Below, in pieces: positions 4,484 to 55,931 of a DNA stretch of 55,931 nt (within the stretch, counting starts at the first letter, position 1; each line of letters starts with the position of its first letter). The translations under genes and the position numbers were made by a program. This DNA comes from a virus. Taxonomy: Duplodnaviria > Caudoviricetes. The stretch spans positions 1 to 55,931 of the IMG/VR virus record IMGVR_UViG_3300037487_002061. The stretch is one strand, 5' to 3'. The notes beneath the pieces were generated by a model. It worked only from the letters and a program-made list of their open reading frames with translations, had not been told where the DNA came from and searched no databases.

Positions 4484-4497
4484 TAATTAAGCCAATG

Positions 4498-4533: not shown

Positions 4534-4542
4534 ATGTAAAAA

Positions 4543-11309: not shown

Positions 11310-11346
11310 AATATTTTATACACTCAATACGAGACAAAGGGACTGA

Positions 11347-12057: not shown

Positions 12058-12066
12058 GAATACATC

Positions 12067-19174: not shown

Positions 19175-19176
19175 AA

Positions 19177-20726: not shown

Positions 20727-20768
20727 ATTAAAAATTAATGTTGTTGTATTATTTGTAAATTTAAATTA

Positions 20769-21308: not shown

Positions 21309-21350
21309 AAATTTATATTTATTTTATGTTTTTAATATACATTTTTCTAA

Positions 21351-22109: not shown

Positions 22110-22114
22110 AAATT

Positions 22115-23503: not shown

Positions 23504-23517
23504 ATAATTATAATTAA

Positions 23518-32921: not shown

Positions 32922-32962
32922 TCTTTACTATAGGTTATCAATTAAAAATTACACTATTTCAA

Positions 32963-33541: not shown

Positions 33542-35261
33542 AATAAAAGTTTTATTTCATTCTAATTACAGTAGAATGATTACTGGTTTTGGAAAAAATG
33601 TAAAGAATCTTTTGTTAGCTCTTCATAATGATCCAGATATTGAGGTAATCGAAGCTGCAAACGGGATTCCATATGGAGTAGATGCTAAAACTCCTTGGAA
33701 GTGTTATGGAACAGCTCCATCAGACCAAAACACAATTAACGAAATTGGTGGAGATGGATATAAACAAAGAATGGCTTCTTATGGAGAATATACTATTGAT
33801 AAAATTATTGAAGATTGTCAACCAGATATCTATCTAGGAATAGAAGATATTTGGGCGTTCAAAGATTTTGACAAAAAGCCTTGGTGGAATAAATTAAAAA
33901 CTATAATTTGGACAACGCTTGACAGCGTACCTATTTTAGAAGATGCATTCGAAATAGCCCCGAAATGCGATAAGTTTCTTGTATGGGCTTCTTTTGCAGA
34001 AGAAGAAATGAAAAAAGCTGGTTTTGAAAACGTGGAAACAATTCACGGAGCAATTGATTATTCAAATTTTAACCCTTTGAATAATAGACATGAAATAAGA
34101 AAAAAATTCAATCTTGAAGATAGTTTCGTTACTGGTTTTGTTTTTAAAAATCAGTTAAGAAAATCGGTTCCAAATCTTTTGGAAGGGTTTAAAATCTTTA
34201 AACAAAAAAATCCTAATTCAAATTTAAAGTTATTGCTTCATACAGATTGGTCTGAAATTAATCAAGGTTGGGATATACCAAGATATATAAAAGAAAAACA
34301 AATAAATGAAGATGATATTTTAGCTTCATATATTTGTCATCAATGTGGAGATTACTTTATTCATAAATATATTGGAGAAAAAAAAGATTGTATCTCTTGT
34401 GGAGCTAAAGAAAAAGTCCATACTAAAAACAGTGGTGTTGGAGTCTCTGAAATTCAACTGAATGAAATCTATTCATGTATGGATGTATATTGTCATCCAT
34501 TTACAAGCGGTGGACAAGAACTCCCAATTCAAGAAGCAAAAGCCGCTGGGCTAATTACATTAGTTACAGAGTATTCATGTGGAACTGATTCTTGTTACGA
34601 GTATCAAGGAGGAATTCCTCTCAAATGGAATGAATATAGGGAACCACAAACTCAATTTATTAAAGCAACAACTTGTGTCAAAGATATTGCCGACAAACTT
34701 AATTTTGTTTTCAATATGAACGTATCGGAAAAACAATCATTAATTAAAAATGGTAAAAACTGGGTAGAAAAAGAATTCTCTGTTCAAAAAATCAAAAGTA
34801 ACTTAAAAGAAATTTTTATTGATTTAAAAAATAAAAACAAAGAGGCTGACATCAATGATGAGAAAAAAAATGAAAAAACAATTTCATTTGAAAGTCTTTT
34901 AGATAAAAATCAAGAAGATAGAATTTTAATTGTTATTCCAGAATCTGCTGGAGATGTATTTATGTTAACTTCATTATTGCCCTCCATAAAAGAAGCTTAT
35001 CCAGAAAAAGACCTTTACTTCGCAACCAAAAAAGAGTTTTTTCCTATTTTAGATTTAAATGAATTTATATACAAAGTCATAGAATACGATCCATTTATGG
35101 AAAACCTCGTAATGATGGAAGGAAGATCTGATCATCAAGGATATTTTGAAATATGTTTTCTACCACATATTGGCACTCAAAGACAATTAGATTATTTACA
35201 TCACGGAAATAAAGACAAAATCATGTTTGAAATTCATTCAAATAACTATAATAAATATTAA
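33528..35261 (+). CDS. GT4 glycosyltransferase with a zinc-ribbon insert and a GT9-like C-terminal domain
   Basis: TGFG, NQLRK, CHQC...CISC, GGQELPIQEA, then ILIVIPESAGDV. Likely ATG at 33528. Confidence 0.8.
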   Translation: MPHSKIKVLFHSNYSRMITGFGKNVKNLLLALHNDPDIEVIEAANGIPYGVDAKTPWKCYGTAPSDQNTINEIGGDGYKQRMASYGEYTIDKIIEDCQPDIYLGIEDIWAFKDFDKKPWWNKLKTIIWTTLDSVPILEDAFEIAPKCDKFLVWASFAEEEMKKAGFENVETIHGAIDYSNFNPLNNRHEIRKKFNLEDSFVTGFVFKNQLRKSVPNLLEGFKIFKQKNPNSNLKLLLHTDWSEINQGWDIPRYIKEKQINEDDILASYICHQCGDYFIHKYIGEKKDCISCGAKEKVHTKNSGVGVSEIQLNEIYSCMDVYCHPFTSGGQELPIQEAKAAGLITLVTEYSCGTDSCYEYQGGIPLKWNEYREPQTQFIKATTCVKDIADKLNFVFNMNVSEKQSLIKNGKNWVEKEFSVQKIKSNLKEIFIDLKNKNKEADINDEKKNEKTISFESLLDKNQEDRILIVIPESAGDVFMLTSLLPSIKEAYPEKDLYFATKKEFFPILDLNEFIYKVIEYDPFMENLVMMEGRSDHQGYFEICFLPHIGTQRQLDYLHHGNKDKIMFEIHSNNYNKY

Positions 35262-35262
35262 A

Positions 35263-36399
35263 ATGCATTTAATACAAAGATATTCATTATCAACTGGATT
35301 AAAAATTAATAATCCATCAATTTCAGAACAATTTTTTCCAATCTCTGCTGATAAATTTGTATGTTTTCACACATCAGCAAAAGATAATTTAAGAGATTAT
35401 GATTATTGGAACGAAGTTAAATTTATTCTAGATCCCATTTTAAATAAATATGGATATAAAACAATTCAGATTGGGTTTGGAAAAGATCCAACTGCAAATT
35501 GCGACATAGATTTAAGGGACAAAACTTCTATTCGTCAAATGGCTTACATTGTAAAAAAATGTAATTTATTTCTTGGGGTAGATTCATTCCCAGCTCATTT
35601 GGCTGGATTCTTTAAAAGAAAAATGGTTTCAATTTACTCTAATTCTTTTATGGAATGTGTCAGACCTTATTGGGGAGAAAGAGAAGATCAAATTTTAATA
35701 GAAACTCATAGAGCAGACAAAGAAAAACCATCTTTTTCATTTAATGAAAATCCAAAAACTGTTAATAGAATAAAACCAGAAGAAATTGCAATTGCTGCAT
35801 TGAAATTACTTAATCTTCCTAGTGAAAAAATTAATTTTAAAACAATAAATATTGGCGCAAGATATAAGCAAGAGTGCATAGAAGTAATTTTGTCCAATGA
35901 AAAATGCAACTTAATATCTAATTTTATGAATGTAAGAATGGATATTAATCATGACGAGCAAGCACTATATCATATTCTTGTAAACAATAATGCCGAAGTA
36001 ACATTAACAAAACCAATTGACGATGAACTTTTATTTTCAAAAAAAATCACAGCTATTAATTATGTTACCGAAGAATTTGATATAGAATTTGTTAAAAAAA
36101 TTAAAAAATCTGGAGTTAATCACACATTGCTTTGCACTTCAAAAGAAAAACTTGCTCAACAAAGATTTAATTTATTTGATTTTACAATTCATTTATTTGA
36201 AATAAATGAAATAATCAAAACAAACAAAGAAAAACTACCTAATCTTGATTTAGAAAAAACAAAAGTTCAATCAAATAAAAAAATAATTTGCGGTAATAAA
36301 GTCTACGAGACATGCTATGATTTCAATAACAGGAGAAATGAAGATGATTTTTTTCTTGACTTAGATTGGTATTATTTGTATAATAACCAACATGAATAA
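35263..36399 (+). CDS. GT9 (heptosyltransferase-like) glycosyltransferase
   Basis: IQIG, DLRDKT, FLGVDSFPAHLA. Likely ATG at 35263. Confidence 0.78.
   Translation: MHLIQRYSLSTGLKINNPSISEQFFPISADKFVCFHTSAKDNLRDYDYWNEVKFILDPILNKYGYKTIQIGFGKDPTANCDIDLRDKTSIRQMAYIVKKCNLFLGVDSFPAHLAGFFKRKMVSIYSNSFMECVRPYWGEREDQILIETHRADKEKPSFSFNENPKTVNRIKPEEIAIAALKLLNLPSEKINFKTINIGARYKQECIEVILSNEKCNLISNFMNVRMDINHDEQALYHILVNNNAEVTLTKPIDDELLFSKKITAINYVTEEFDIEFVKKIKKSGVNHTLLCTSKEKLAQQRFNLFDFTIHLFEINEIIKTNKEKLPNLDLEKTKVQSNKKIICGNKVYETCYDFNNRRNEDDFFLDLDWYYLYNNQHE
36356..36384 (+). promoter_or_regulatory. Consensus sigma70 promoter
   Basis: TTGACT-N17-TATAAT, 7 nt before ATG 36392. Confidence 0.8.
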
Positions 36400-43128: not shown

Positions 43129-44642
43129 GAATCAGTTGTGTAATTAATTACACGGGTTGTCGTTCCATTTGCAGAATCTATTGATATTTGGTGAGAAGTT
43201 ACATACCCAGCAACACTCTCTGGGAGACTATCTAAATAATTTGCCCCGAACATTAATCCCTTTGATTTAAATGGCACAACAATTGCTGTTATTGATCCAG
43301 CTCCAAGACCCTTGTTACCATTAAAGACTACCCTTTCATTTAAATCTGAGATATCTATAACTCTTTGAATCAAGTCTGGTCTTTCTGTTTTAGATATTGT
43401 TTTTTTAAATTTCAATATTCCCCCACTTGTGTTATAAGCGGTATCAGTAGAATAACTTAAGTTTTCTGTTATTTTGCCCTCATGCTTAACAAATGAGGTT
43501 GACCTAGATTTTTCATAAATAGATCCGACAGAAGAGAAAACAGAGGAAATTTTTGTAGAATAAGTCGATTGATTTGAAGAGTATAATGATTTTACATTAG
43601 TAAATCTTTGTTCAAAATCTTTTCCGTCTGAAGAGTAATTTACAGTTAATTGATATTCAAAAAACGTCCCAACTTTATTTTTAACAACAGAATAAGAAAC
43701 AAAATTTGTTTGATTTTTACTTGGGTCATTTGTAAATGATATTTTTAAATTTACAATGCCGCCATCTTTATTTATTCCTTTTTCAATTAAAATCGGACGA
43801 CCATATAAAGAACTATTTGAAGAAACGTATTCATCAATAATTGTTTTGGTATAATTTAATGCATTTTCTTCTAATGGTTCTATTAAAGCTTTAATTTCTA
43901 CATTAAAATCTAAATTTGTAAATCCTTTTTCATCAATATTTTTTGATGAAGTAACTTTTTTAGAATAGGGCGAGCCACTTTCAATTTGAGAAGATTGGAA
44001 ACTTTCAGAAAGAGAAACACTTAAATTAATTAAATCAATACTTTCTGCTTTATTTGTTTTTAAATTTCTGGAATATCTTGCGTTCTCTGAAAGACCATCA
44101 TTTAACTTTCCATAACTTGGCCTTCTTAAAAAATAAAAATTTCTTAAAAAATATTTAGCGTTATTTAAAAATTGATCACCCGCATCTTGTTTATATTTTA
44201 TAGATACATTTCGCGTGAAAGAATAAGAATCATCTGATCTGGAGAAACTAAATGTTTCTTGAAAAGATTCTATCCACTGAGGACTCGCAAGATGTTTTGT
44301 GAAATCATCATTTGCATAAGAATCAAGTCTTTTTGATTCAGCAATAACTATTTTTGCTTCAGTCTCTCCTGTTAAAGAAGTGGAACTAATCGATAAAGAT
44401 TGAAATCTTCCATTAATGAATTCATCGCCGCCGATTCTAGCAATAATGTTCTTTCTGCCATACGCAGTATTTAATGCTTCTATCCCAGTTAATAATACCC
44501 CTGATCCATTGTCAAAAGCAATGTCAGCAACATCTATAGTATAATTTGCTACAATTTCATAACCAAATAAGTGAGTAGAATCAAGATAATTGTAATTTAT
44601 CTGACTTGATGCGCTGATTACTTTATTGACGATTAAACTCAT
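43125..44642 (-). CDS. Tail/baseplate structural protein
   Basis: 505-aa beta-rich ORF immediately after the tape measure gene. Confidence 0.6.
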   Translation of the reverse strand: MSLIVNKVISASSQINYNYLDSTHLFGYEIVANYTIDVADIAFDNGSGVLLTGIEALNTAYGRKNIIARIGGDEFINGRFQSLSISSTSLTGETEAKIVIAESKRLDSYANDDFTKHLASPQWIESFQETFSFSRSDDSYSFTRNVSIKYKQDAGDQFLNNAKYFLRNFYFLRRPSYGKLNDGLSENARYSRNLKTNKAESIDLINLSVSLSESFQSSQIESGSPYSKKVTSSKNIDEKGFTNLDFNVEIKALIEPLEENALNYTKTIIDEYVSSNSSLYGRPILIEKGINKDGGIVNLKISFTNDPSKNQTNFVSYSVVKNKVGTFFEYQLTVNYSSDGKDFEQRFTNVKSLYSSNQSTYSTKISSVFSSVGSIYEKSRSTSFVKHEGKITENLSYSTDTAYNTSGGILKFKKTISKTERPDLIQRVIDISDLNERVVFNGNKGLGAGSITAIVVPFKSKGLMFGANYLDSLPESVAGYVTSHQISIDSANGTTTRVINYTTDS

Positions 44643-44648
44643 TATTAT

Positions 44649-47600
44649 TTATTTCCCCGCCTGACCTAATTGTTTTTCTATATCAAGCAATCTTCCATTT
44701 ACTTGATTACTCAAAGAACTTAAGTTTTTGGTGAAATCAGTAAACCCAGCCAAATTATTCGCTGCATCTTTTACACTTTTAGTTAAAGATTCTACTGCTT
44801 TTGGTATTCCTGTGTCTCCAAACAAACTATTCAATTCGGAAATTTTTGTTTTTAATGTTTCTAGTTCTACATTTAGAGCTTTTTGTTGGTTTTGTAAAGC
44901 TTTTGATTCGGGGTCTTCTGTAGCAGTTGCTTGCTCAGATTCCTTTTTTGCTCTTTCACGAAGTTTTTCAGCTCGTTCTGGCGTAATTTGTTTTTTGGCT
45001 AAAGCCGCTGCAATCTCTTTCTCAGTTGATCCCGTTTTACCTAAACCAGTTAATGAATTAACAATATCTGAACCTCTCTCTGCTTTCTTTTCAGAACCAG
45101 TCACAGCATTTTTTTTCACTGTATCGATGAAATTTTGAATTTTTGTTGGATCACCTTGCGCGGCTTTAAGAGCCTTCATTGTTTCCATTAATTCCCCGCC
45201 AGCGAAAGTCTCTCTAATTGCCTTTTCCACTCCGCTTAAATCTGTAGCCGCCATGCTTGCTGACCCGATTGCCAACCCCGTGTCTTTAGCGGTTAATCCA
45301 GCGTCAGTTTGCATTTGAACTAATTTTTCTTCACCATATCTTTTTGCAAATTCCTTTTGATCTCCATCAGTTTGCCTTAAAATATCTCTTCCCTTTTCTA
45401 CATCTCCTTTTTTCCCAGACTTCAAAAGCCTACCTGCTTCTTCAATCTTATCTTGTAAGGATAACACATCTAATTTCGGACCAGACATTAATTCATTAAT
45501 TTTTCCAGACCCTCCCGCCATAAATTTCGTTCCAGCTTCTTTTATTTTTCCTATTAGTTCAGATAAATTGTTCTGGACTTCGGTTTCTCTATTTAGAGCC
45601 GCTTGCATAGATTCAGCGACATTATTTTTAAATGTTGCTGCTGATGAAATTATATTATCTTTAAATGTTTTCGCGTCTTCTGGTTTTAAATTTGTTTTTA
45701 AATATCCATCCAAAGCTTTTCCAGCTCCGATAGCTCCATCTTTCATATATGCAGAAAACACATCTTTAGAAATAGCTCCACTTATTTCTGCCCCGCTTTT
45801 ACCCTTTAACTTGTCCATTTTAATAGAGTCCATGTTAAGATTTTTTTGGAAATCTTCCCCTGTAAACTCTTTCATGAAGCCAACTTTTGATTCGGTGGCT
45901 AATGTTTTTTTCTGTTCTATTCCTATTGCAGCTTTTGTCGCCTCTGCATATGGTGCGTTTGCTGGCATTGTTACATTTGAGGCAATTCCTTCTGCAAATT
46001 TTTGTTGATCCAATGTGACGGCTTTCTTTTCAAGAGCCGCAGAGAATTTTGAAAGTGCGGAACTTAATGCTTGGAAATTTAATAGTTTTTGAGCTTCCTC
46101 CGCTCTGTTATTTATTATCTGAGACAATTTTGTCATTGCGTTGCCCAAAATAGCTGTATATTCGCCCTCAGCTTGAGTTTTTTCTTCTTCAGATGAGGTT
46201 GAACTTTGAAGAACAGCTTTTGCTTTTTGTTGTGCGTCAGTTATTTCTTTTGAAGAAACTCCACTTGATTTATAGGTTGAGATTATGCTGTTGTACCCAT
46301 TTCTAAGAGCATCAGCGCTCTCTTGTGTTTGATTTCCATTATCGTCAAAAACTTTAGATAACCCAAGTGCCGAACGAGTTAAATCTTTCATACGGTCCAA
46401 GCCTTTCATTTTAGCGTTTACGACTATTGTTGATTCAGCTAAATCTTTTTGCGCTTTTGCTGCTGCGTCTGAAGCCTCTTTGAATGCATTATAACCGCCC
46501 ATTGCCACACCAGCAATAGCACCTAATGCCGCTCCTACTGGACCAAATGACGCGCCCATAGCGGTGTATTGAGCGGTGGTAGAGATCGTGTTTATTGCAG
46601 CAGACTTAAGGGCGCTATCTTCTTCTTTTATTGCAGGAAGCAACGAAGGAAGCGCACTAAGACCCATTTGCAGAGCAATAGATTTCATTCCACCCATTCC
46701 ACCCATTCCACCTCCCGTTCCACCCATTTTAGATCCAGCTTCACCCGCAGTTTTTGCTACATTATTAGCTTTCGTAGTTCCTCCGAACTCAAAGAGATCT
46801 TTCAACGATGGCTTCGACTGGCGATTTCTTTGTTTACTAGACATTGTTGTCTCGTCTATTTTCAAAGGTTTTGCTTGGGGAGACATAGTTCCTGCGGGTA
46901 ACATAGAAAATGTTCCTTTCATAGCAGCTTTTTCTGCTCTTCCTCTTAGAAGTGCTGCATTACCCGCTCCTACGGGCATCATCCTTCCACCAATATTCAC
47001 TTTCGCATCGCCTCCTCCCTTTTCAGGAGGCCCAAGATCGGTAATGCCAAAGTCTTGAGGCTTTGGAGTTGCGCCAATATCTGGGGGTTTTATTGTACTT
47101 AAAGCTTTTCCCGCCTCTGTTGCACCTTTGTTAAGTGGCGCTATTGTTGCTCCCAATTCTTCCATTCTTTTTCTAAAAGCCGCAAGTGTCGCATCTGTAT
47201 CTGACATGCCTTTACTAGCAGGACCTCCTCCCTTCTGCGACGACACTTTTGAGATAGGATCTATGGGCGGGATTGCTCTGTCGACCATTTCTTCCACTCT
47301 TTTTCTAACCGCAATCATCGGATCTATATCTGGCATGCCCCCACTAGCAGGAGGTTCGGCAAAATTAGGAATAAATCCCCTCGCCATACCATAAGTTTTA
47401 ATGCTAGCCCCCTCTTTCTTCGCCCGATTTATACCTTGGAAGCCTCCTTGCGGTTCGTCGCGACGATTAGCGACCATTAATCCAGCGGGATTCATGGGAT
47501 TTTTTAAAGAATTATTTTGATCTACATAGACCTTACTTGGTTCAACTCCTGCGCCGATCTCTCTTGAAATTGCGTCATTGATCGCGGAAAAATTAGGAAT

Positions 47601-50600
47601 AAATCCTTTTGCATAAAAATCATCACTATCATCATCATTGTCTACGACAACGCCTTTAAATACCGCTGGTTTAGCTTTTGGAATGGACGATACAAGATAC
47701 CTAAGAATATATGGAGCAATATCAAAACCTAACGAAGGATTTGCTGGTTGATAAGAATTAATTGAAGACAGAGTCTTTTTTGAAGGAGCGGGTTTATTTT
47801 CGTAACGATCATTTAAAATTTTCTCTCCCGTTGAATTTAAATCCACATCCCATACATCTTTATAACTAAAGACATTTTTGCCATTTATTGTTTTTTGTTT
47901 TCCAGTAAATCCTCCCATTATTGGACTTTCACCATAAAAGCCACCCTTTTCATCAATCATTCTAGGCTCATTCTCGTTTGACATCCCAGTTTCTCTCGCA
48001 CTATTTGCGCTTTTAATCACCTGAGATGCTTCTGCACTATCCTGATAGAATGCTAAATCCCCGTTTTTCTTTTGAAAAAATTGAGACGGTTTTTTACCGC
48101 CATAATCTTTTATATAATCTTTTAGCGATTTTGTTCCACCTAAAAGCTTGTATTTCAAATATAATTCATCCAATTCAGATATTGAGGTTCCCTCTCCAAT
48201 TGGACGATTAGTTGATTGATTCATCTTGCCGTTTACTACATCAACGTACTTTGACTCACCAGAAGGTCTTTCATCTTTGGTTCCGACAATGACATTTTTA
48301 TTATTATAAAGACCCGTGTTTATTCTTGAAGCGGCAAATTTAGCAAAACGCTCTCTTAATATATCATTTCTTAATATTGTTTGAACAGCCGTCTTCGCAT
48401 CCATTAAATCTTTTTTAGTTTTTATTAATTTTTCTGGATCTTGAACGAATTTTGTCAAATTTGCCCATATTGATTCAATATTTAATTTTTCACCTTTGGG
48501 CATTGAGACTCCAAAAGCTTTAGCGGCTTTTGCAGCAAAAAGTCCAGTCTTAGCTATATTAATAGGATTAGTTGTAGCTACTGTTTTTGCAATGCTTGGA
48601 ATCGTTCCTGATGGAATTTTTTTATAAAGATCATAGGCCGATTTTAAAGAGCCATTCAAAGCAAAATTAGGAACAAAACCTCTAGCTGCATATTGAAAAC
48701 GATCCCCCATTTCTTTTTGAAGGCTTTCTATAAACTCTGGCTGATTTTTTTTAATAAAAGATGTATTCTCTAATTGTTTTTGAGACCTGAGATCATCACT
48801 TCCATTTTCGGCCCTTTTTAATCTTCTTTTTTCTATTTCTTCATCAGGAACATTTAAATATTTCAAAGTGCCACCAGAATCTCTAATTGCATTTAAAACT
48901 CCCTGAAGCTGTCCTGAGATACCAGTAGGAGTTTTTGCTAACTCAGATCCAGAAAGTAATGTAAATGAATCGGCTTTTTTGACATCGTCTAAAGAACGAA
49001 TAAACTTGCCCATTCCCATAGCCAATGTCGATTTTCCAGCACCAGAAGGACCAATTATTCCATCTTTTCTTTTTTTTGTTGGTGTTTCTAATATTTTAGA
49101 AAGAACTTGTTTGCTTAATGTTGGGCCTAGCTTGTCTGAATCATAAATATAATTACCACTTTTGGTAGTAGATCCTTTACCAATTTTGGGAACAGATCCT
49201 TTACCAATTTTGGGAATAGATTCTTTAGCAAAGTTTGGTATAAAACCTTTGGCAGCACCATAAGTCTGAGCATTTACTCCCTCTTTCCTAGCTCTAGCTA
49301 TTCCTTGGAGTCCTCCTTGCGGCTCATCACGGCGATTAGCAACCATCAGACCCATTGGGTTCCCAGAGTTCTTCAGAGAGTTGTTCTGATCAACGTAGAC
49401 TTGACTAGGATTAACTCCTGCGCCGATCTCTCTTGAAATTGCGTCATTAATTGCAGAAAAATTAGGAATATAACCAGAAGCAAATCCTTTTAATCCTTTT
49501 ATTTTTGCCGCTCCTTTTGTAATTAATCCTTTGGGAGCATATATAGGAACATTATTTCTATTTGTTACTTTGCTCTCTTCTCTTTTTTTGATTTCAGCGG
49601 CTAATCCAAATAATCTAGTTGTTGGAATATTAGACCTTAATATATCAGCTTGCCTAAGCCTTATTAATTTATCATCATAATCACTGATGGCATTACTTGG
49701 CAAAACTAATCCTTTACCTTTTGGTTTTCCCTCTCCAAAATTAGAATCATTATATGCTGACTTACCAGATATTTTAGCCTCTCTAACTGCGAAAGACCCA
49801 GAAGTGATATCAGGTCCGACTTTATTTTCAGTCATATTAATAGTCGTCTCGTTTCTCAATAACGCTTCGAATATTCTTCCAGCTAATACATTATTTGATA
49901 AATTTGCATCTAAACCATTTATTGCAAAATTAGGAACAAAACCCTTGCTCTTTACTATATTTCTTAAAGGCGCGGGATTAAGTTTTGTTTGCTTGTTAAA
50001 TTCTTCAAAAACTTTTTCAGTCGATGCTGTTGGTCCAGCAGAAGAATAAGCCTTGTCAATAAAGCCTGATATCCCTATTTCTGAATCAAGCTTATCAAAA
50101 ACTTCCCTTAAAGAAATTTTTGCGCCCTTTGAAGAAGAAACAGGAAGAGATTTCCCCCCTTTGAATTTATTTTTAAATATTTCTTGTTCGTTTTTAGAAA
50201 ATCCACTGTTTCCTTCTTTTATTCTTTTTAAAGTTTCGGAAACGTAATTGGGATTAACGTAATTGGGGATAAAGCCACCAGAAGCTCGACGAGTAGGGCG
50301 TGAAGTTGCAGGGGAGGTTATCCCCTTAGTAATATCTTCTCCACTTACAACTTTATTTTGTTTTTTCTTTTTTTCTAAAGCTTTTTCAAAAGCACCTTTA
50401 ACTAGCCTTCTTCTTTCATTAATTTCTGGATCAATTTTTTCTCTATATTCTTTATAAACTTTACCCGCCATGCTTTGTTTAGTTGAGTCCGCAGAATACT
50501 TAAAATCAGCAACTGGAGCGGGTAAAGAATTATTTCCAAATAAATCTTTTAATTTTTTTTGTTCATCTATTTTCGGATTTCTTACATCAAAGTTGCCTTG

Positions 50601-53012
50601 ATCTTTGTCATTTTTTGCTGTCCCTAATCTCAATGTAGTATTAACCGCCGCTTCAAATAAAGCTCCAGAAGCAGCTCTTATAGCCCCTTTAAACCCTTCT
50701 CCTTTAGTAATTTCATCTACGGTATTTGGTTCTGCTGGTCTCAAACCTAAAGCCTCAGCTATAACTTTCGATTGATCAATAATATGTGTTCTAGCTATTG
50801 CTTCAATTTCATCAGATCCAAAATTTGTTTTAAAATTTTCTGCTAATCCAGCCATATTTGAAGCGGCAAAAGCATCAAATTTATAATTTAAGATAACTCC
50901 ATTCGTCTTATCATATTCTTGATTATAATTAATCCCTCTTGAATTATCATTTGGAGTCAATATTGTCGGCATTTTTTGAACCAAACTATTAACATTAATA
51001 GCTTGGTCAAATTTTCTTTCTTTAAGAACAGCTTTTTTTTCATCATCACTTAAAACAGAAGCGCTTCCTGTTTTTTTCAGAGTTTTTTGGCTTCGTATCT
51101 TTTCATTAAACGCCAATTGATCGTCAGTCAGTTTTTTTTGACCTTTTTCTAGAACAATGTAACCTGTAGTTGTATTTATTTTCCCTTGAGGTATAACAGC
51201 GTCCTCAACAGTGGGTTTGGCCGTTTTCCCAAAATTAGGAATAAAACCTTTTGCATAATGAGGTATAACAGCAGAATCTCCGTTTCTTCCAAAATTTGGA
51301 ATTTCGGTTTCTTGGTTATTCATTATGAACTTCTGTCCACCAATCGTTCCTTTGCCTTGTTTAGCTTTTACAGAAGAAGTCGCCCCAAGCATTCTTGCCG
51401 TAGCCTCTTCTGCCATATATCCATCCGCAAATCTTTTGCCACCTTTTCCAGAAAAACCACCACTTGAACTATAACCAGCAACACCTCTTTGAGCCGCCGC
51501 TGTAGCAATACTTCTTAATAATTGTTCTTGTTGAGTTAACAACGCATTTTCTCTTTGAATTGCGGCGATTATAGCAGCTTGTTTATCCGCTTGTGATATA
51601 GTCGTATTTACAATAGCAGCTCTTAACTGTTGGTCTCTAGATAAAAGACCTACAATGCCTCCTTCGATACTTTTGATTTTCTCTGATTGAGAACCAATAT
51701 CTAAAATTGTTTTAAAACCTTCTTTAGCAAATTTAGCAACAAGAGTAAATATCTTAAGAAACGCAGTTGTAATTAATATAAGTCCTGGACCTGATAGAAA
51801 AGCTCCAATTGTTTTGAGCAATCCTTGGATAAATTTATTCCCTTTTTCTGGATCAAGAGCCTCTTCTAAAAATGTTGAGAATGTATTTGCTAGGCTTAAT
51901 AAATTCTTAATAATAGGTCCGAAAGTAATCGTGCCAATTTTTTCTGACAAATTGACAAGCCCGACAATCAATGAATTAATTTGAGCGCTAATACTTTCAT
52001 TTAATTGAGCGTTCTTTGTAAATGCCTCATTGGTTGCTCCCGCTGCTGTTTTAGCTGCGGCTGCAAAAATTGAAGTATCTGATCCCAAATCTTTTAAAGC
52101 AGCACTAACTACGTTAATTTGGAAAACGCCACCAGCAAGTTCTTTTATTTGGTTGGCTACCGTAGGATCTGCTATCTTTTCTAAGGAGGCAGATAATGCT
52201 TGTAGTTTTTGAATGCCTGTTTGAGAAGAATCTATTTCGACTCCTAGTTCTTTTAAATCATCAATAACTTTTGCGCGACCTAATCTAGCGAAAATAGATT
52301 TTAATGCGTTACCAATAACCGCACCACCACGCGCAGTCTTCTGTTCTACTGCTGTAATAATGCCTAGAAGCTCGTCAAAGCTAACTCCCGCATCTTCTGC
52401 CGTCGAACCAGCTCTAGAGAAGCCATCTGCAAGATCTTGAGCAGAAACAGCAAACTTAGTATCGACTGCAACTAACTTATTCGTAATTTGCTCTGCTGTT
52501 AGTCCTGCGCTAGTAAATCCGTTAATAGCGGAGGTTAAAGCTTTAACAGACTTAACTGAATCAAGTCCAGAAACTCTTGTTAAAATGAGAGCGGCGCTTA
52601 ATCTTTTAGAAGTGTCTTCTGCGCTTAAACCTTGACGAGCAAGTTCTGCCGCAGCATCCGCTACAATTCCAAATGCTTGCCCAGTATCTTTAGCTACGGC
52701 GAATACAGAATCTCTTAATTGATTTAATTGATCGCTAGTCCCACCTAAAATAGAACCAATTTCATTAATTCTTTTCTCTACTTCAATTGTATTAGAAATA
52801 AGAGCAGAGAACGCTTGACTTACTCCGTTTAAAATTGTTGTAGTTGCACCGAAAGCAAAAACACGCGCCGTAGAAGCATCAAGAGATTTCTGGAATTCTG
52901 AAGCTTGACCCGTGATTCTTCCGAGTGCTTGCTGTGCTTGTTTCGAAGCCGCATTTAGACTCTGAGTGTTCAGAGTTAAGTTCGCATTAAGATTAATTGA
53001 GCCAGTAGCCAT
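44649..53012 (-). CDS. Tail tape measure protein (TP901-type core) with a central multi-domain cargo array
   Basis: N-terminal core ELARQG...AVSAQDLADG..RAG..A..AGVSFDEL...RGGAVIGNALKSIF, hydrophobic segments and coiled-coil C-terminus; eight G[FY][IV]PN[FY] motifs. Confidence 0.9.
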   Translation of the reverse strand: MATGSINLNANLTLNTQSLNAASKQAQQALGRITGQASEFQKSLDASTARVFAFGATTTILNGVSQAFSALISNTIEVEKRINEIGSILGGTSDQLNQLRDSVFAVAKDTGQAFGIVADAAAELARQGLSAEDTSKRLSAALILTRVSGLDSVKSVKALTSAINGFTSAGLTAEQITNKLVAVDTKFAVSAQDLADGFSRAGSTAEDAGVSFDELLGIITAVEQKTARGGAVIGNALKSIFARLGRAKVIDDLKELGVEIDSSQTGIQKLQALSASLEKIADPTVANQIKELAGGVFQINVVSAALKDLGSDTSIFAAAAKTAAGATNEAFTKNAQLNESISAQINSLIVGLVNLSEKIGTITFGPIIKNLLSLANTFSTFLEEALDPEKGNKFIQGLLKTIGAFLSGPGLILITTAFLKIFTLVAKFAKEGFKTILDIGSQSEKIKSIEGGIVGLLSRDQQLRAAIVNTTISQADKQAAIIAAIQRENALLTQQEQLLRSIATAAAQRGVAGYSSSGGFSGKGGKRFADGYMAEEATARMLGATSSVKAKQGKGTIGGQKFIMNNQETEIPNFGRNGDSAVIPHYAKGFIPNFGKTAKPTVEDAVIPQGKINTTTGYIVLEKGQKKLTDDQLAFNEKIRSQKTLKKTGSASVLSDDEKKAVLKERKFDQAINVNSLVQKMPTILTPNDNSRGINYNQEYDKTNGVILNYKFDAFAASNMAGLAENFKTNFGSDEIEAIARTHIIDQSKVIAEALGLRPAEPNTVDEITKGEGFKGAIRAASGALFEAAVNTTLRLGTAKNDKDQGNFDVRNPKIDEQKKLKDLFGNNSLPAPVADFKYSADSTKQSMAGKVYKEYREKIDPEINERRRLVKGAFEKALEKKKKQNKVVSGEDITKGITSPATSRPTRRASGGFIPNYVNPNYVSETLKRIKEGNSGFSKNEQEIFKNKFKGGKSLPVSSSKGAKISLREVFDKLDSEIGISGFIDKAYSSAGPTASTEKVFEEFNKQTKLNPAPLRNIVKSKGFVPNFAINGLDANLSNNVLAGRIFEALLRNETTINMTENKVGPDITSGSFAVREAKISGKSAYNDSNFGEGKPKGKGLVLPSNAISDYDDKLIRLRQADILRSNIPTTRLFGLAAEIKKREESKVTNRNNVPIYAPKGLITKGAAKIKGLKGFASGYIPNFSAINDAISREIGAGVNPSQVYVDQNNSLKNSGNPMGLMVANRRDEPQGGLQGIARARKEGVNAQTYGAAKGFIPNFAKESIPKIGKGSVPKIGKGSTTKSGNYIYDSDKLGPTLSKQVLSKILETPTKKRKDGIIGPSGAGKSTLAMGMGKFIRSLDDVKKADSFTLLSGSELAKTPTGISGQLQGVLNAIRDSGGTLKYLNVPDEEIEKRRLKRAENGSDDLRSQKQLENTSFIKKNQPEFIESLQKEMGDRFQYAARGFVPNFALNGSLKSAYDLYKKIPSGTIPSIAKTVATTNPINIAKTGLFAAKAAKAFGVSMPKGEKLNIESIWANLTKFVQDPEKLIKTKKDLMDAKTAVQTILRNDILRERFAKFAASRINTGLYNNKNVIVGTKDERPSGESKYVDVVNGKMNQSTNRPIGEGTSISELDELYLKYKLLGGTKSLKDYIKDYGGKKPSQFFQKKNGDLAFYQDSAEASQVIKSANSARETGMSNENEPRMIDEKGGFYGESPIMGGFTGKQKTINGKNVFSYKDVWDVDLNSTGEKILNDRYENKPAPSKKTLSSINSYQPANPSLGFDIAPYILRYLVSSIPKAKPAVFKGVVVDNDDDSDDFYAKGFIPNFSAINDAISREIGAGVEPSKVYVDQNNSLKNPMNPAGLMVANRRDEPQGGFQGINRAKKEGASIKTYGMARGFIPNFAEPPASGGMPDIDPMIAVRKRVEEMVDRAIPPIDPISKVSSQKGGGPASKGMSDTDATLAAFRKRMEELGATIAPLNKGATEAGKALSTIKPPDIGATPKPQDFGITDLGPPEKGGGDAKVNIGGRMMPVGAGNAALLRGRAEKAAMKGTFSMLPAGTMSPQAKPLKIDETTMSSKQRNRQSKPSLKDLFEFGGTTKANNVAKTAGEAGSKMGGTGGGMGGMGGMKSIALQMGLSALPSLLPAIKEEDSALKSAAINTISTTAQYTAMGASFGPVGAALGAIAGVAMGGYNAFKEASDAAAKAQKDLAESTIVVNAKMKGLDRMKDLTRSALGLSKVFDDNGNQTQESADALRNGYNSIISTYKSSGVSSKEITDAQQKAKAVLQSSTSSEEEKTQAEGEYTAILGNAMTKLSQIINNRAEEAQKLLNFQALSSALSKFSAALEKKAVTLDQQKFAEGIASNVTMPANAPYAEATKAAIGIEQKKTLATESKVGFMKEFTGEDFQKNLNMDSIKMDKLKGKSGAEISGAISKDVFSAYMKDGAIGAGKALDGYLKTNLKPEDAKTFKDNIISSAATFKNNVAESMQAALNRETEVQNNLSELIGKIKEAGTKFMAGGSGKINELMSGPKLDVLSLQDKIEEAGRLLKSGKKGDVEKGRDILRQTDGDQKEFAKRYGEEKLVQMQTDAGLTAKDTGLAIGSASMAATDLSGVEKAIRETFAGGELMETMKALKAAQGDPTKIQNFIDTVKKNAVTGSEKKAERGSDIVNSLTGLGKTGSTEKEIAAALAKKQITPERAEKLRERAKKESEQATATEDPESKALQNQQKALNVELETLKTKISELNSLFGDTGIPKAVESLTKSVKDAANNLAGFTDFTKNLSSLSNQVNGRLLDIEKQLGQAGK
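47361..49475 (-). repeat. Dispersed duplication of a 76-aa module (49230-49475 and 47361-47606)
   Basis: SAINDAISREIGAGV.PS.VYVDQNNSLKN..NP.GLMVANRRDEPQGG; 61/76 aa identical by manual alignment. Confidence 0.92.
49170..49216. repeat. 24-bp tandem duplication (PKIGKGS x2)
   Basis: AGATCCTTTACCAATTTTGGGAA occurs twice. Confidence 0.85.
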
Positions 53013-53021
53013 TTCTACTAA

Positions 53022-53027
53022 TTACAC
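53022..53027 (-). promoter_or_regulatory. GTGTAA motif, putative phage late promoter (one of 8 copies)
   Basis: GTGTAA-N9-ATG; also at 1685, 2328, 2593, 11318 (GTGTAT), 25956, 28601 and 32949. Confidence 0.7.
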
Positions 53028-53031
53028 AATA

Positions 53032-53913
53032 TCATGTTAAAAAGTCTTCGGCTTTTAAAGATCCGCCGTTTGCTGCGCTTTTTTCTCTTAAGTCTTCTAT
53101 TCCATATGTTGTCTTAGAATCAGAGGAACGATCTTTTTCGATATAATCAAATATTTTAACTGGATCATCGAGTATTTCGTCTGGAATAGAAACATTTTTA
53201 AATTTATTAAGCAGGGAATTTGCATATACTAATATATTTTTTTGATATATTGTTAAATTAAATCCAGACTTATCAAATACTATATGTGGTTGCCTATAGT
53301 TCAAAACAAACAATTCAAAAAATGATGTTGAATAAGCGGCATTTAATATATTTTTTTTATCTAGTAATTCTGACATTTTGTCAAATAACTCAGATATGTA
53401 TTCGTATGACTGCATCTCCCCCAATGGCTCTTCGAAATTTTGATCTTTAAAAAATGTCAAGAGCATTAATTCTCTTATTTTTTTATTTTGAGCAAAACTT
53501 TCGGCACTATAACTTGAGATTTTCGCCCTATCTTCTTTTATTTTTTTAAGGGCTAATTCTTTTTCATTGATATTCCCTTTAATTAAATATTTTTGCATGG
53601 GGTCCGACATCTTAATTCTTGCTTGATCCAATTTTTTAATTGACCAATCAAGAGATTTGATTTCTTCTTCTTTATTAATGCTCCAATAATTATTTTTTAT
53701 TGCTAAAGCTATAATTTCGTCTTCTGTTTTAATGCCAGACCTTTGAGCATCATTTATATATTCTTCGTACTTTTCGTCTAGAAAAATATAATCCCTTAAA
53801 GTAAGGTGTTTAAAATAAAATTTTTTACTATTAACATAAATTATGCTATAGCCGCGAACAATATCAATTAGAGCAGAATTTGCTTTTCTAAGAACATCGT
53901 CTTTATCCTTCAT
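53032..53913 (-). CDS. Putative tail assembly chaperone
   Basis: Helical protein directly upstream of the tape measure gene; likely ATG at 53913. Confidence 0.55.
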   Translation of the reverse strand: MKDKDDVLRKANSALIDIVRGYSIIYVNSKKFYFKHLTLRDYIFLDEKYEEYINDAQRSGIKTEDEIIALAIKNNYWSINKEEEIKSLDWSIKKLDQARIKMSDPMQKYLIKGNINEKELALKKIKEDRAKISSYSAESFAQNKKIRELMLLTFFKDQNFEEPLGEMQSYEYISELFDKMSELLDKKNILNAAYSTSFFELFVLNYRQPHIVFDKSGFNLTIYQKNILVYANSLLNKFKNVSIPDEILDDPVKIFDYIEKDRSSDSKTTYGIEDLREKSAANGGSLKAEDFLT

Positions 53914-54754
53914 CAGCTTGTTGATCTTCGGCAACTACTTCTGTCTTAGAATCAGCTAGATTTTCGGAAGACTCATTAGTTTCCGAAAACATTTCAACCA
54001 AAGACGCTTCAATGTCTTCTTGTTTTTCGGCAATCTTATTGTACCAAATACTGGCGACACGGACAAGAGTCGTGAAGGCCTGATCGAATATTCCCTTTAC
54101 CTTTAAAAGAGATTGGTCAGTGATATCTTCTACTGATTCGCATAAGCCTAAATAAGCTAGACGTTTTTCGTCAAAATTATCGCCTTGGAAAAGTTGAAAT
54201 AATTGCTTTTTACTATCCACTTCTTCTTCGTAGTAAGAAAGGCTGAATACCAACCATTCAATCAATTTCTGTTCTGCTTTTGCATCAGCGGTCTGAGAGA
54301 ATTGAGAGCGCATTGCTTGTTCGTATTCAAGAAGATTATTTTTGGTGATGACAAAAGATTCTTTTGCTTCGACAAGCTTTTCCTTTTGATCATCATTTAG
54401 ATCTTTTGCTCCTCCGTAGAATTCAATAACCCTAGAAGCTTCAAAATTATCAAGAATGGACTTCTGAAGACTTTCAACATTTATTTTAGATGTGATTCCT
54501 CCAATGTCTCCCATTTTTTTGTTTAACATTGCCTTGGTTAGAAATCCAGAATTAATAAATTCATTGAATTTTTGACCATAGAAGAATTCGGCTTCTTCAA
54601 TAGTCGCCATAGACGGCTTAACAAAAACAATACGATTACTGGTTTCCTCTATAATCTTTTTTGTTGATTCAACAGCTTCTCCCTTTACCTTTTTGACATA
54701 TGGGACTGTTTTTTCTATTTTTCTAGTTGCGGAAAAGCTATAAATTTCTTTCAT
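53903..54754 (-). CDS. Putative tail assembly chaperone
   Basis: Helical acidic protein paired with the preceding entry; both have a G(I/F)xT...coiled coil...(S/T)A(E/D) layout. Confidence 0.55.
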   Translation of the reverse strand: MKEIYSFSATRKIEKTVPYVKKVKGEAVESTKKIIEETSNRIVFVKPSMATIEEAEFFYGQKFNEFINSGFLTKAMLNKKMGDIGGITSKINVESLQKSILDNFEASRVIEFYGGAKDLNDDQKEKLVEAKESFVITKNNLLEYEQAMRSQFSQTADAKAEQKLIEWLVFSLSYYEEEVDSKKQLFQLFQGDNFDEKRLAYLGLCESVEDITDQSLLKVKGIFDQAFTTLVRVASIWYNKIAEKQEDIEASLVEMFSETNESSENLADSKTEVVAEDQQADEG

Positions 54755-54758
54755 TTTC

Positions 54759-55223
54759 TTAAAGTGATAAAGTTCTTAGTAACTTATTATCGCTAGAAAC
54801 TAAATAAATTCCATCATAATCTGCAAAAGAATAAAAAATATCTCCTATTTTATCATTAACAGAGACCAAAGCAGTCGAATTATTTATTTTGTCGAATTCA
54901 ATGCAATTAACCAAAGCCAATGAATTTTTAAAGGGTAAATAATTAGACATTAAAACATCATTATAGAAATAACTTATTCTTTGCCCACTGTCGAATAAAT
55001 GGCAATTTAATGTAAATTGAGCGCCGCTACTATAACCGCCAAAAAATGTTCCGCTGTGATCAAATATATATCCGCTATATCCAGAAAATCCAAATCCCGT
55101 TATGAAAGAACTTCCGCTTAAATTGCCTAAATGAAATGAAAATCCAGATTCTGGAGAATTAATAATAAAACTTGTGTTTATTACGCAATCATCAAAAAGA
55201 TCAACTGGAGTATAAATTTTCAT
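54759..55223 (-). CDS. Virion structural protein
   Basis: Likely start MKIYTP at 55223 (TAATG overlap); SG-rich. Confidence 0.6.
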   Translation of the reverse strand: MKIYTPVDLFDDCVINTSFIINSPESGFSFHLGNLSGSSFITGFGFSGYSGYIFDHSGTFFGGYSSGAQFTLNCHLFDSGQRISYFYNDVLMSNYLPFKNSLALVNCIEFDKINNSTALVSVNDKIGDIFYSFADYDGIYLVSSDNKLLRTLSL

Positions 55224-55931
55224 TAGAGTGGAAGATAGTTTAGAGTAACATGCAGGGTTTTTGCAGTTCCAGAACATGGATCACCAAAAGTAATATTATT
55301 CGCAACGATGCTACCAGTGGTTTGACCAACAAATACACCTGCGACAAGAGTACTTGAATTAGATGCATGACAAGTGCCTTGAACAGTGCTAGTGCCGTTT
55401 CCATAACTTGCGTATGCTACTGAAGAGAAATAATATCCAGATGGAGCAGTTAAAGTTAATGTGACATTTTCTGCCGCAGATCCAGAAAGAGTGGAAACCG
55501 CCGAAGCAACGGTAATACTCACCGAAGCGGTCGTTGAACCGCCAGTATTCGTGGCGGTGACGGTGTAGTTGGTGGCGGCAACCACAACTGTCGGTGTGCC
55601 GCTGATCACACCTGTGGTAGTGTTCAGCGAGAGTCCCGCAGGAAGTGGGGGTGAGACCGCGTAGGAAACCACCGCTCCACCGCCGCTGGTTGGCGTGTTG
55701 TTCGTAATCGCCGTGCCATTGGTGTAGGTGGCGGGGTTGGTGGAGTAAGTCAGCGCCGAAGGTGCGACTGCATTGACCCTAATGCTCAACGTAACTGGCG
55801 CTGCACCGCCAGTATTCGTGGCGGTGACGGTGTAGTTGGTGGCGGCAACCACAACTGTCGGTGTGCCGCTGATCACACCTGTGGTAGTGTTCAGCGAGAG
55901 TCCCGCAGGAAGTGGGGGTGAGACCGCGTAG
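55223..55931 (-). CDS. Partial protein with putative Ig (He_PIG-like) repeats and a C-terminal SUEL/Gal-lectin-like domain
   Basis: LPAGLSLNTTTGVISGTPT...YTVTATN repeats; ASYG...CHASNS...FGDPC.GT.K.L. Confidence 0.82.
   Translation of the reverse strand, partial: YAVSPPLPAGLSLNTTTGVISGTPTVVVAATNYTVTATNTGGAAPVTLSIRVNAVAPSALTYSTNPATYTNGTAITNNTPTSGGGAVVSYAVSPPLPAGLSLNTTTGVISGTPTVVVAATNYTVTATNTGGSTTASVSITVASAVSTLSGSAAENVTLTLTAPSGYYFSSVAYASYGNGTSTVQGTCHASNSSTLVAGVFVGQTTGSIVANNITFGDPCSGTAKTLHVTLNYLPL
55538..55931. repeat. Exact duplication with 267-bp period
   Basis: 55538-55664 is identical to 55805-55931 (127 nt, truncated by the window end). Confidence 0.95.

Follow-up and report, generated by a model that had tools for sequence, protein, structure and literature searches.

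A motif-bounded cassette array inside the tail tape measure protein of an uncultured phage

Viral polyproteins carry a conserved cleavage site at each of their junctions, and asparagine peptide lyases are found in virion proteins. Among the tail tape measure proteins (TMPs) of phages, that of mycobacteriophage TM4 contains a peptidoglycan-hydrolase motif (PMC1796659), those of enterococcal phages contain lytic transglycosylases (PMC10194240), and that of the Thermus phage P23-45 has a virion RNA polymerase fused to it (PMC10770324). Polyvalent proteins join many unrelated domains in one virion-delivered polypeptide of variable architecture; they are thought to be packaged in the capsid, they carry recognisable conflict domains, and release of the domains by proteolysis, with processing by a zincin-like metallopeptidase, has been proposed (Iyer et al. 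2017, PMC5512222). As for variation within TMPs themselves, Smug et al. 2023 reported that these proteins show a mosaic signal by sequence and that no genuine case of recent TMP mosaicism could be confirmed (PMC10684548). The locus described here lies in a 55,931-nt stretch of viral DNA, IMG/VR record IMGVR_UViG_3300037487_002061, which, a fragment of an uncultured phage genome, is the whole record of that genome and is called the window below; genes for replication, ribonucleotide reductase and the tail are seen in it. Our subject is its 2787-aa TMP, encoded by a single open reading frame (ORF) at 44649..53012 (minus strand, as is every feature of the gene given below), in which a six-residue junction peptide recurs eight times and bounds a series of cassettes.

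The junction peptide and the cassette array

Residues 63-384 of the TMP (51861..52826) match TIGR01760 at 99.9 bits against a cut-off of 28.8, and residues 107-294 match PF10145 (E 1.1e-20, 74.8 bits against 33.2); tape-measure PHROGs match as well, with a best E of 2e-40. A preliminary description of this DNA, made from the letters alone, had proposed a TP901-type core, and these scores confirm it: judged by the curated cut-off of the model, the protein belongs to the TP901 family of tail TMPs. Behind the core, a regular-expression scan of the translation finds G[FY][IV]PN[FY] at residues 589 (motif 1, GFIPNF, 51231..51248, which opens the array), 913 (motif 2, GFIPNY, 50259..50276), 1024 (motif 3, GFVPNF, 49926..49943), 1180 (motif 4, GYIPNF, 49458..49475), 1256 (motif 5, GFIPNF, 49230..49247), 1445 (motif 6, GFVPNF, 48663..48680), 1803 (motif 7, GFIPNF, 47589..47606) and 1879 (motif 8, GFIPNF, 47361..47378, the last junction). 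Both these positions and the spacings of 324, 111, 156, 76, 189, 358 and 76 residues are those first described. From amino-acid composition, 1.8e-4 copies would be expected by chance in a protein of this length, and the window, read in all six frames, contains no other.

A search seeded with the array (residues 560-1900) gave 306 proteins at E <= 0.001, 120 of them listed. All 120 are 1.5-4.7 kaa (thousand residues) long, most of those having a precomputed Pfam entry carry PF10145, and every one has the exact motif, in 2-13 copies each (550 copies, against 0.02 expected). Such a search rests on shared words and is hence biased toward motif-bearing proteins. A control search was made with the motif-free core (residues 1-560) against 1.84 billion representatives; it returned 10,330 proteins at E <= 1e-3 and 1404 at E <= 1e-30. 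Among its best 150, 142 were new and 135 were at least 700 aa long, and the exact motif is present in 86 of those 135, with at least two copies in 77. The motif is thus a conserved trait of a large clade. Moreover, in 60 IMG/VR loci, 257 copies lie within the TMP ORF and none in 581,533 nt of flanking DNA read in six frames; in every one of the 60, the copies all lie inside one ORF, with no gene fission at the junctions.

The logo drawn from these copies extends the motif to A-A-x-G-[FY]-[IV]-P-N-[FY]-A. Among 51 one-mismatch variants, the G is changed in none and the P in one, and the Asn position is the most tolerant, being replaced by Ser or Tyr and, in a wider scan, also by Lys or Arg. The codons differ among the eight copies (GGT/GGC/GGA, ATT/ATC/ATA/GTT, CCT/CCC/CCA, AAT/AAC), as the preliminary description had it, and several synonymous codons are used at each motif position in 232 copies from 55 genes, with a skew to TTT, ATT and CCT as compared with other parts of the gene; the p-values of this skew ignore shared descent. 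Because synonymous codons vary at every motif position while the amino acids are fixed, the peptide is what is conserved, and on this codon evidence selection acts on the junction peptide.

Some further forms of the motif were seen beside the canonical one. Two half-motifs, E-I-P-N-F and A-V-I-P-H-Y, precede the first full motif (residues 570-588, window 51249-51305, minus strand), and both occur in 60 of 255 relatives of at least 700 aa; because they also occur in proteins whose junctions have Lys or Arg in place of Asn (Lys/Arg-type), the core of this subclade ends with three tandem [IV]-P-x-[FY] units. A set of distant members of 5097-5354 aa (L056-L058, ORF 2054-17344; L059; L060; and P0218, 5354 aa) has motif-bounded segments of 750-930 aa, with Leu, Lys or Ser replacing the first aromatic residue (e.g., GLIPNY), which suggests further junction dialects. 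In locus L004 (ORF 1984-6285), the longest TMP ORF stops 214 residues past the last motif though the contig continues; the break is off-junction, and the tape measure is split or frameshifted there unless the sequence is in error.

The segments between the motifs behave as exchangeable units. From the 120 listed relatives, 430 internal segments group into 68 families at a mutual BLAST coverage of at least 70%, and at this coverage homology therefore spans motif to motif. In terms of these families, the protein of the window (P0001) reads 1-4-7-0-3-5-0; P0002 and P0004, with N-terminal cores 94% identical to that of P0001, read 3-1-4-7-0; P0003 reads 7-0-3-12-5-2-2-32-2; and many relatives read 1-3-0 or 1-4-0. 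Among 736 ends of BLAST high-scoring segment pairs over residues 560-1900, 467 fall within 10 residues of a motif centre (63%, against 12.5% at random) and 588 within 20 residues of a motif, against 24% expected. The homologues are not colinear. The swappable array that the preliminary description had proposed is thereby upheld, with the N-terminal core kept, the number and order of modules differing, and homology breaking at the motif.

The dimensions of the protein fit the same picture. In 202 proteins with Asn-type junctions, the part before the first motif is near constant (median 609 residues, interquartile range 582-629), and the array runs from 63 to 4084 residues with no correlation to the length of the C-terminal part (r -0.08). 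Relatives that have no Asn-type motif have a median length of 1517 aa. The array therefore has the appearance of an addition to a ruler some 1500-1700 residues long. As many as 13 exact-motif junctions are found in the 120 listed relatives, and as many as 18, by a looser pattern, in a set of 262 proteins. The central 1296 residues of the TMP are an array of independently evolving domains, not a ruler, and almost certainly this array is shuffled at its junctions. With one short sequence at every domain boundary, the arrangement appears to be that expected of a polyprotein with junction sites.

Recent exchange can be seen directly in lake metagenomes. Contigs of four public runs were aligned to window positions 44000-54000 at a likeness of at least 90%. 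A 36,721-nt contig from X5 (depth 16.1) joins 47543 to 49413 (side 222) and thereby omits 1869 nt, or 623 codons, in frame (47544..49412). The same joint is present in a 289-nt contig from X3 that otherwise shows no difference (side 83). X3 also has 100%-identical contigs inside the omitted block, at 47672-47989 and 48715-49003, and hence both forms are present in one lake-water data set. The block that is absent from these near-identical phages spans the first copy of a 76-residue cassette (the 76-mer) minus its first ~15 codons, motif 5, the P-loop cassette, motif 6, cassette 6, motif 7 and the first ~15 codons of the second 76-mer copy; the net loss in the short form is one 76-mer equivalent, the P-loop cassette and the 352-aa cassette. 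The crossover maps to a 36-nt run at 47544..47579, identical to 49413-49448 and 9 nt from motif 7 / motif 4; it is the same in both 76-mer copies, though the copies are only 74% identical overall in DNA (70% in protein).

Other breaks lie at the motif edges. The homology of the X5 contig is lost at 50277 and at 51230, the bases adjoining motifs 2 and 1, and at 51230, 599 nt replace 140 nt. In X3, two contigs diverge at 51230 and run on into a P-loop-type cassette, and another diverges at exactly 47378, the edge of motif 8. Three more joints, 47378 to 51230, 47613 to 51304 and 48680 to 49864 (sides 20-25), were read as other phages sharing motif DNA and were not counted. Together with the family orders above, these contigs show that recombination at the junctions, or close beside them, adds, removes and reorders cassettes, and that the process continues today in lake populations. 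The suggestion that the motif serves as a recombination anchor holds in modified form: homology does break at its edges, but the crossover that could be mapped fell in the run inside the 76-mer, off the motif itself.

Cassette contents and the terminal 76-mer

The seven inter-motif segments of this protein represent six families, only the two 76-mers grouping together, in agreement with what had been read from the letters. Except for a Walker A signature in cassette 5, no Pfam, PHROG or NCBIfam match was obtained for the seven (NCBIfam for six of them). Cassette 1 (family 1, 318 aa, 50277..51230) is the commonest first cassette, with 83 copies in 82 of the 120 listed relatives; its alignment (A2) has conserved G..FE, D and [DE]xK positions, a pattern that we take to recall PD-(D/E)xK nucleases. 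There was no Pfam hit in 26 members of this family and no PHROG, PDB profile or ESM Atlas match, and a PDB sequence profile search with alignment A2 returned nothing significant. Cassettes 2 (family 4, 105 aa, 49944..50258), 3 (family 7, 150 aa, 49476..49925) and 6 (family 5, 352 aa, 47607..48662) have 26, 9 and 12 copies among the listed relatives, that of cassette 3 varying in array position, and none has a family hit; in the ESM Atlas, cassette 6 meets unnamed viral clusters only, at 0.88-0.90.

Cassette 5 (family 3, 183 aa, 48681..49229) is the one with a recognisable signature. Its Walker A segment, at residues ~1318-1330 (49023..49061), gives weak AAA and ABC Walker A hits, in stretches of Pfam AAA_29 and ABC_tran. 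In alignment A3, the P, the G and the GKST of GPxGxGKST, together with YDSD and DLRS, are invariant in 8/8 copies; a PDB profile search matches P-loops only, and both the Pfam and the PDB hits are below family cut-offs. With the Walker A pattern GxxxxGK[ST] in a conserved domain, the cassette qualifies as a predicted P-loop NTPase of no specific subfamily. As a separate observation, the stretch straight after motif 5 (residues 1264-1281, window 49170-49223, minus strand) reads SIPKIGKGSVPKIGKG, which is two half-units of the Lys-type junction ([IV]-P-K-x-G-K-G) known from short relatives. The other seven aligned P-loop cassettes are without SIPKIGKGSVPKIGKG half-units; the stretch is a 24-column insertion in the sequence of the window alone.

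Cassettes 4 (49248..49457) and 7 (47379..47588) are the first and second copies of the 76-mer, a small NxRDEP domain (family 0 by clustering), and the second copy closes the array. Family 0 has 99 copies in 95 of the 120 listed relatives and is the best-conserved element after the motif, its members being mostly 50-70% identical to those of P0001 (36-70% over 41 aligned sequences), where the cores of the compared proteins, in the alignments printed, are only 31-49% identical. In alignment A1, which holds these 41 sequences, E, G, N-P, G and N are invariant, and D-E-P, G-G, Q-G and R-A nearly so. The AlphaFold 2 (AF2) model of a motif-76-mer-motif construct has a small alpha/beta core with a predicted local distance difference test score (pLDDT) of 70-79, a mean of 63.9, and both junctions as low-confidence linkers. 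The 76-mer stands directly before the last motif in 152 of the 172 proteins that have it, and this last motif prefers P-N-Y. On these counts, nearly every array ends in the 76-mer as its conserved terminal element.

The presence of the 76-mer goes with the type of junction. Short relatives of 1.3-1.9 kaa, with cores 60-70% identical to that of P0001, have a single family-1 cassette flanked by G-x-[IVM]-P-[KR]-[FY]-A and no 76-mer; close cousins of theirs with Asn junctions carry a 57-aa short form of the 76-mer (L072, read by eye). By hidden Markov model, 169 proteins have both the Asn motif and the 76-mer, 36 have neither, and 35 have the Asn motif only, counts that are not phylogenetically independent. 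Many of these 35 have a last spacing of ~55-65 aa and may hold a short form such as that of L072, the one Asn-type locus read by eye, and two apparent counter-examples carry GKIPNF/GRVPNY or IPNF variants that the regular expression missed. When the motif is filtered by its flanks in 262 proteins, 201 have the Asn type without Lys/Arg, 12 have Lys/Arg only and 7 have both (again not phylogenetically independent); among 826 generalised motifs, the Asn position holds Asn in 768, Ser in 18, Arg in 16 and Lys in 12.

In relatives, 58 of 82 listed cassettes were scanned against Pfam, and 3 of the 58 gave hits at E <= 1e-3: a GNAT acetyltransferase (E 7.8e-7), a weak cytidylyltransferase-like match (E 1.3e-4) and a sub-threshold C19orf12. 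The GNAT of P0054 likewise lies within a motif-bounded segment. The P-loop NTPase, GNAT and weak cytidylyltransferase-like cassettes offer supporting evidence that the cassettes may be cargo. Cell-wall hydrolases are placed elsewhere: in 16 scanned relatives, all 13 such domains (lysozyme, SLT, VanY, GH19, NlpC/P60 and glucosaminidase) come after the last motif, in the C-terminal part, and because of this the array is not the usual tape-measure lysin. In P0001 itself, none of these six kinds of domain was detected. The terminal place of the 76-mer, its covariation with the Asn of the motif and the position of the lysins outside the array all go beyond the preliminary description.

Readings of the junction

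What, then, is the junction peptide for? We think it probable that it is read by one common factor acting in trans, whose specificity would include the fourth core position. A common reader is suggested because each protein tends to hold one junction type and because the 76-mer accompanies the Asn type; neither pattern would arise from a simple turn. The linker-like, low-confidence junctions of the AF2 model and the place of the 76-mer directly before the last junction support the same reading. In the fuller course of events that we propose, the TMP would be built into the tail as a single chain, its ejection would carry all cassettes into the envelope, and cuts at the junctions, made once the tail is assembled or once the TMP is ejected, would set the cassettes free, with the released enzymes including those that need cytoplasmic cofactors such as ATP or acetyl-CoA (the P-loop NTPase here, GNAT in relatives). 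The layout is polyprotein-like, because one site lies at each boundary, the first and last included, and cassette order does not matter, which is in line with processing. Still, the step that makes the junction a cleavage site is tentative, and we would hold it with somewhat less than even confidence. The 76-mer is a candidate for the factor that recognises or processes Asn-type junctions, a role we consider doubtful; a complex prediction of its core (A1 17-83) with a heterologous junction (A2 316-350) gave ipSAE values of 0.03 and 0.02, without controls, and speaks neither for nor against binding. The most far-reaching version is speculative and decidedly unlikely: the TMP would be a self-contained delivery polyprotein, the NxRDEP domain would be a new reader or processing module acting in the region of the P-N-[FY] bond, the cassettes, a fast-exchanging set of mostly unknown early proteins, would be freed after ejection and reach the cell before the DNA, and the change between Asn and Lys/Arg would be a switch of processing system.

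A number of results weigh against delivery and processing, and they are best taken together. No peptidase family was found in the TMP (Pfam, PHROGs, NCBIfam), in its cassettes (Pfam and PHROGs, with NCBIfam for six of the seven) or in the neighbouring genes scanned (PHROGs and Pfam, with NCBIfam also for F0 and F2, the two genes upstream that are described below). Neither P0001 nor the 16 scanned relatives have a processing peptidase domain, VanY and NlpC/P60 being cell-wall enzymes outside the array. The 76-mer has no Foldseek match at E <= 0.001 in PDB or BFVD (best VIA Z 2.9), and a PDB sequence profile search with alignment A1 gave nothing significant, peptidases included. The occurrence of Lys/Arg and, rarely, Ser at the Asn position means that Asn chemistry is not a general requirement of the junction; the Lys/Arg subgroup is without the 76-mer, and hence an Asn-specific step in 76-mer-bearing arrays is still compatible with the data. 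As to the cargo, the AF2 model of cassette 1 is poor (pLDDT 51.6), with a best structural Z of 4.7 to unrelated helical proteins. In the preliminary description the segments looked globular; given this poor model, the term has good support for the 76-mer and the enzyme-like cassettes alone. Searches for free-standing proteins at 0.55-1.75x the cassette length found no relative of 174-557 aa for cassette 1 and none of 193-616 aa for cassette 6 (lengths outside those ranges were not searched), and these two untraced cassettes fit TMP-specific structural domains as well as effectors. At E <= 1e-3, 55 of the 58 scanned cassette representatives have no Pfam family. Moreover, the N- and C-terminal parts must stay joined for the role of ruler, so that a cut made before the tail is assembled would do harm; as G, P and N typically form turns, the linker could be purely structural; and no cultured relative was found, so virion proteomics has no source.

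Of the alternatives to a common reader, a structural junction survives best, and is possible though unlikely. It would be a tight hydrophobic turn or clasp that splices domains into the trimeric TMP without upsetting its register or its fit in the tube; the cassettes would stay attached and, for example, span the periplasm, bind the envelope or fill the lumen, with no cleavage and no partner. The near-invariance of G, P and N, with two aromatic residues and one aliphatic residue between them, suits such a turn. So do the restriction of the motif to TMPs, the lack of fission in all 60 loci, and the absence of free-standing relatives (cassettes 1 and 6) and of Pfam families (55 of 58), as for TMP-specific structural domains. 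Short relatives, too, keep one cassette with the Lys/Arg form, and because of this the junction pre-dates the large arrays. However, a turn leaves unexplained why each protein should have one type of junction (201 Asn, 12 Lys/Arg only, 7 mixed), why the Asn type should be coupled to the 76-mer, and why ten residues should be near-invariant across TMPs whose cores have diverged to 31-49% identity, and the P-loop and GNAT cassettes look like enzymes rather than spacers. Three copies of folded 300-aa domains, moreover, would probably fit poorly in the lumen of a tail tube, which also counts against it.

Docking of a chaperone or unfoldase is, in our judgment, an unlikely account, if one with several points of contact. 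The junction would be bound by SurA, FkpA, a cytoplasmic chaperone or the phage's own ClpA/ClpB-like ATPase, and one site per cassette would keep that domain unfolded in the tail, to be pulled from the tube and refolded after ejection. Phage HK97 reportedly requires the periplasmic peptidyl-prolyl isomerase FkpA together with its TMP (Cumby 2015), which counts in favour of docking. So does the requirement of imported colicin M for FkpA (PMC2615193), as do the ClpA/ClpB-type two-ring AAA+ protein that this phage and 2/2 complete relatives of ~134-140 kb encode and the flexible, accessible state predicted for the junctions by AF2. In sequence, GYIPNF shares Y-I-P-N and the next hydrophobic residue with WEYIPNV, a phage-display peptide that binds the P1 domain of SurA with a Kd of 1-14 uM and is present in its crystal structure (PMC7195389, PMC11401910). 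The P1 consensus, however, is Ar-X-Ar-X-Pro (PMC11401910), and the first aromatic residue is missing from the junction, whose logo reads x-G-[FY]-[IV]-P: the residue two before [FY] is G, S, K or R (G 36%, S 19%, K 14%). In 185,579 species genomes there were 23 pattern matches, none confirmed, with no prophage relative and no host, so that a diderm host is not established. Furthermore, the cofactors needed by the P-loop and GNAT cassettes are cytoplasmic, the sites of general chaperones are degenerate where this motif is nearly invariant, and the link to the 76-mer is unexplained. Finally, it is very improbable that the repeat is a recombination signal only, its DNA offering microhomology for exchange and its peptide having no function, for although homology breaks at the motif edges, the natural indel lies beside a motif, the motif codons are skewed and the phage encodes a UvsX-like recombinase and exonucleases, synonymous codons vary while amino acids stay fixed (in the 232 copies of 55 genes, and in copies 2 and 5 here), eighteen variable bases are a poor target, the mapped crossover used the 36-nt run and not the motif, and the significance of the codon skew takes no account of shared descent.

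Surroundings of the array and comparison with known systems

Within the TMP, the core is followed by a hydrophobic, membrane-helix-like segment at residues 401-430 (51723..51812), which has a Kyte-Doolittle mean of 1.94 over 19 residues and is the sole stretch above 1.5. After the array comes a C-terminal part of 903 aa (44652..47360) that, by sequence and composition, consists of a Pro/Gly-rich linker, a Gly/Ala-rich hydrophobic stretch and an Ala/Lys/Glu-rich region. The content of Pro and Tyr is 4.9% and 2.9% in the array, 1.0% and 0.5% in the N-terminal part and 1.3% and 1.3% in the C-terminal part; the last pair fits, as far as composition goes, the coiled-coil C-terminus given in the preliminary description.

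Directly upstream of the TMP gene lie two conserved genes, F0 (53035..53913, minus strand, 293 aa) and F2 (53906..54754, minus strand, 283 aa), which are candidates for tail assembly chaperones by position only. F0 is present in 49 of 55 loci and F2 in 47 of 55, both are present in 26/26 further loci, and neither matches anything in Pfam, PHROGs, NCBIfam or PDB, where the sequence profile searches with alignments A4 and A5 gave nothing significant. Usual tail assembly chaperones are about half their size. The two are joined by an ATGA-type overlap. A programmed frameshift between them was considered and rejected, as an in-frame ATG for F0 at 53913 overlaps the stop of the preceding gene. They were also considered as partners specific to one type of motif, and this was rejected because they are found with both junction types in the 26 loci (16 Asn-type, 10 Lys/Arg-type). 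Farther upstream, an ORF cut by the contig end (window 55223-55930, minus strand) has a He_PIG Ig-like domain and then a SUEL-type galactose/rhamnose-binding lectin domain, and is probably the decorated C-terminus of a major tail protein. PHROG and Pfam scans gave no hits for the genes downstream of the TMP.

The rest of the window offers several observations of its own. A 776-aa two-ring AAA+ protein of the ClpA/ClpB/Hsp100 type (window 4543-6873, minus strand; AAA, AAA_lid_9 and AAA_2) scores below the equivalog cut-offs for ClpA and ClpB, and the complete relatives of ~134-140 kb, which were reached through the loci, carry a gene 35-36% identical to it; the presence of an unfoldase in phages with folded domains on their tape measure may perhaps not be coincidence. 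A DnaE-like DNA polymerase (phrog_405; window 6857-12057, minus strand) is in three pieces, with profile positions 407-1085 in the ORF at 6857-9199, 327-406 in 9302-9904 and 50-291 in 11347-12057; between the pieces are an exonuclease-subunit ORF (9901-10518) and an endonuclease ORF (10515-11309); the gene may be a split one, or a mobile element may have invaded it. Nucleotide-sugar epimerases, methyltransferases and glycosyltransferases are clustered at window 18125-24843 (minus strand) and 30034-36399 (plus strand), partly in a stretch of 22-23% G+C (20-24 kb) whose ORFs have no PHROG; the cluster may serve modification of DNA or of surface glycans.

A tblastn search of residues 539-1884 against 50,697 deposited phage records found nothing, and in cultured phages (Bacillus, Lactococcus and similar) the core is matched only by PF10145 regions of 25-32% identity. 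No paper was found for GFIPNF, GYIPNF or FIPNFA in the literature searched, and the single match for GFVPNF is a human serum proteomics paper; nor was a description of the array found in the literature searched on tape measure motifs, shuffling, polyvalent proteins, effectors and chaperones. The comparison must therefore be with more distant systems. The TM4 and enterococcal TMPs are alike in having non-ruler domains inside the TMP that are carried to the envelope, and relatives of P0001 also carry lysin domains; they differ in that here the lysins are outside the array (13/13), and in the fixed junction peptide, the obligate terminal domain and cassettes almost all without a known family. In P23-45, a giant TMP likewise carries a cytoplasm-acting enzyme into the cell and thus gives a precedent for enzyme cargo, but it is one N-terminal enzyme, with no variable array and no repeated junction described; a term search of that paper finds no mention of TMP proteolysis, the single match to "cleav" concerning an expression tag (PMC10770324).

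Polyvalent proteins share the multi-domain array, the variable order and the idea of release. They differ in that the carrier here is the TMP, no peptidase domain was detected, the domains are unannotated and one conserved peptide marks each junction; polyvalent proteins are known by several recognisable conflict or effector domains, whereas P0001 shows the Walker A signature only, and in the text that describes them the words "tape" and "linker" do not occur (PMC5512222). With regard to mosaicism, a recent in-frame difference of a cassette block is seen here directly in near-identical genomes, in contrast to the report that no such recent case could be confirmed (PMC10684548), and it is the first directly observed recent gain or loss of domains in a TMP. 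Likeness to the junctions of viral polyproteins and to asparagine peptide lyases lies in a short conserved sequence at each boundary and in an invariant Asn with an aromatic or small residue after it, the carrier being a virion protein that takes part in entry; unlike in those systems, processing is here only a candidate role, and some relatives have Lys/Arg instead of Asn.

The nearest known systems (TMP lysins, the P23-45 RNA polymerase and the polyvalent proteins) thus lack all three features seen here: a junction peptide that recurs, a terminal domain that is obligate and a hypervariable array in mid-ruler. TMPs are usually seen as rulers that at times carry a lysin. By its core, this clade has at least 1404 relatives at E <= 1e-30, many with arrays, and in its tape measures a modular array that keeps to a fixed junction grammar and has a conserved terminator domain takes up as many as 4084 residues. 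The covariation of the junction peptide, Asn against Lys/Arg, makes a sharp hypothesis testable by mutation. If the cassettes are delivered proteins, they would make up a large and still unexplored stock of phage proteins of the first wave (68 families in 120 listed proteins, nearly all unannotated), and what in the better-known phages is a ruler with an occasional enzyme would then offer, in this clade, a place on the tail where cargo could naturally be plugged in.

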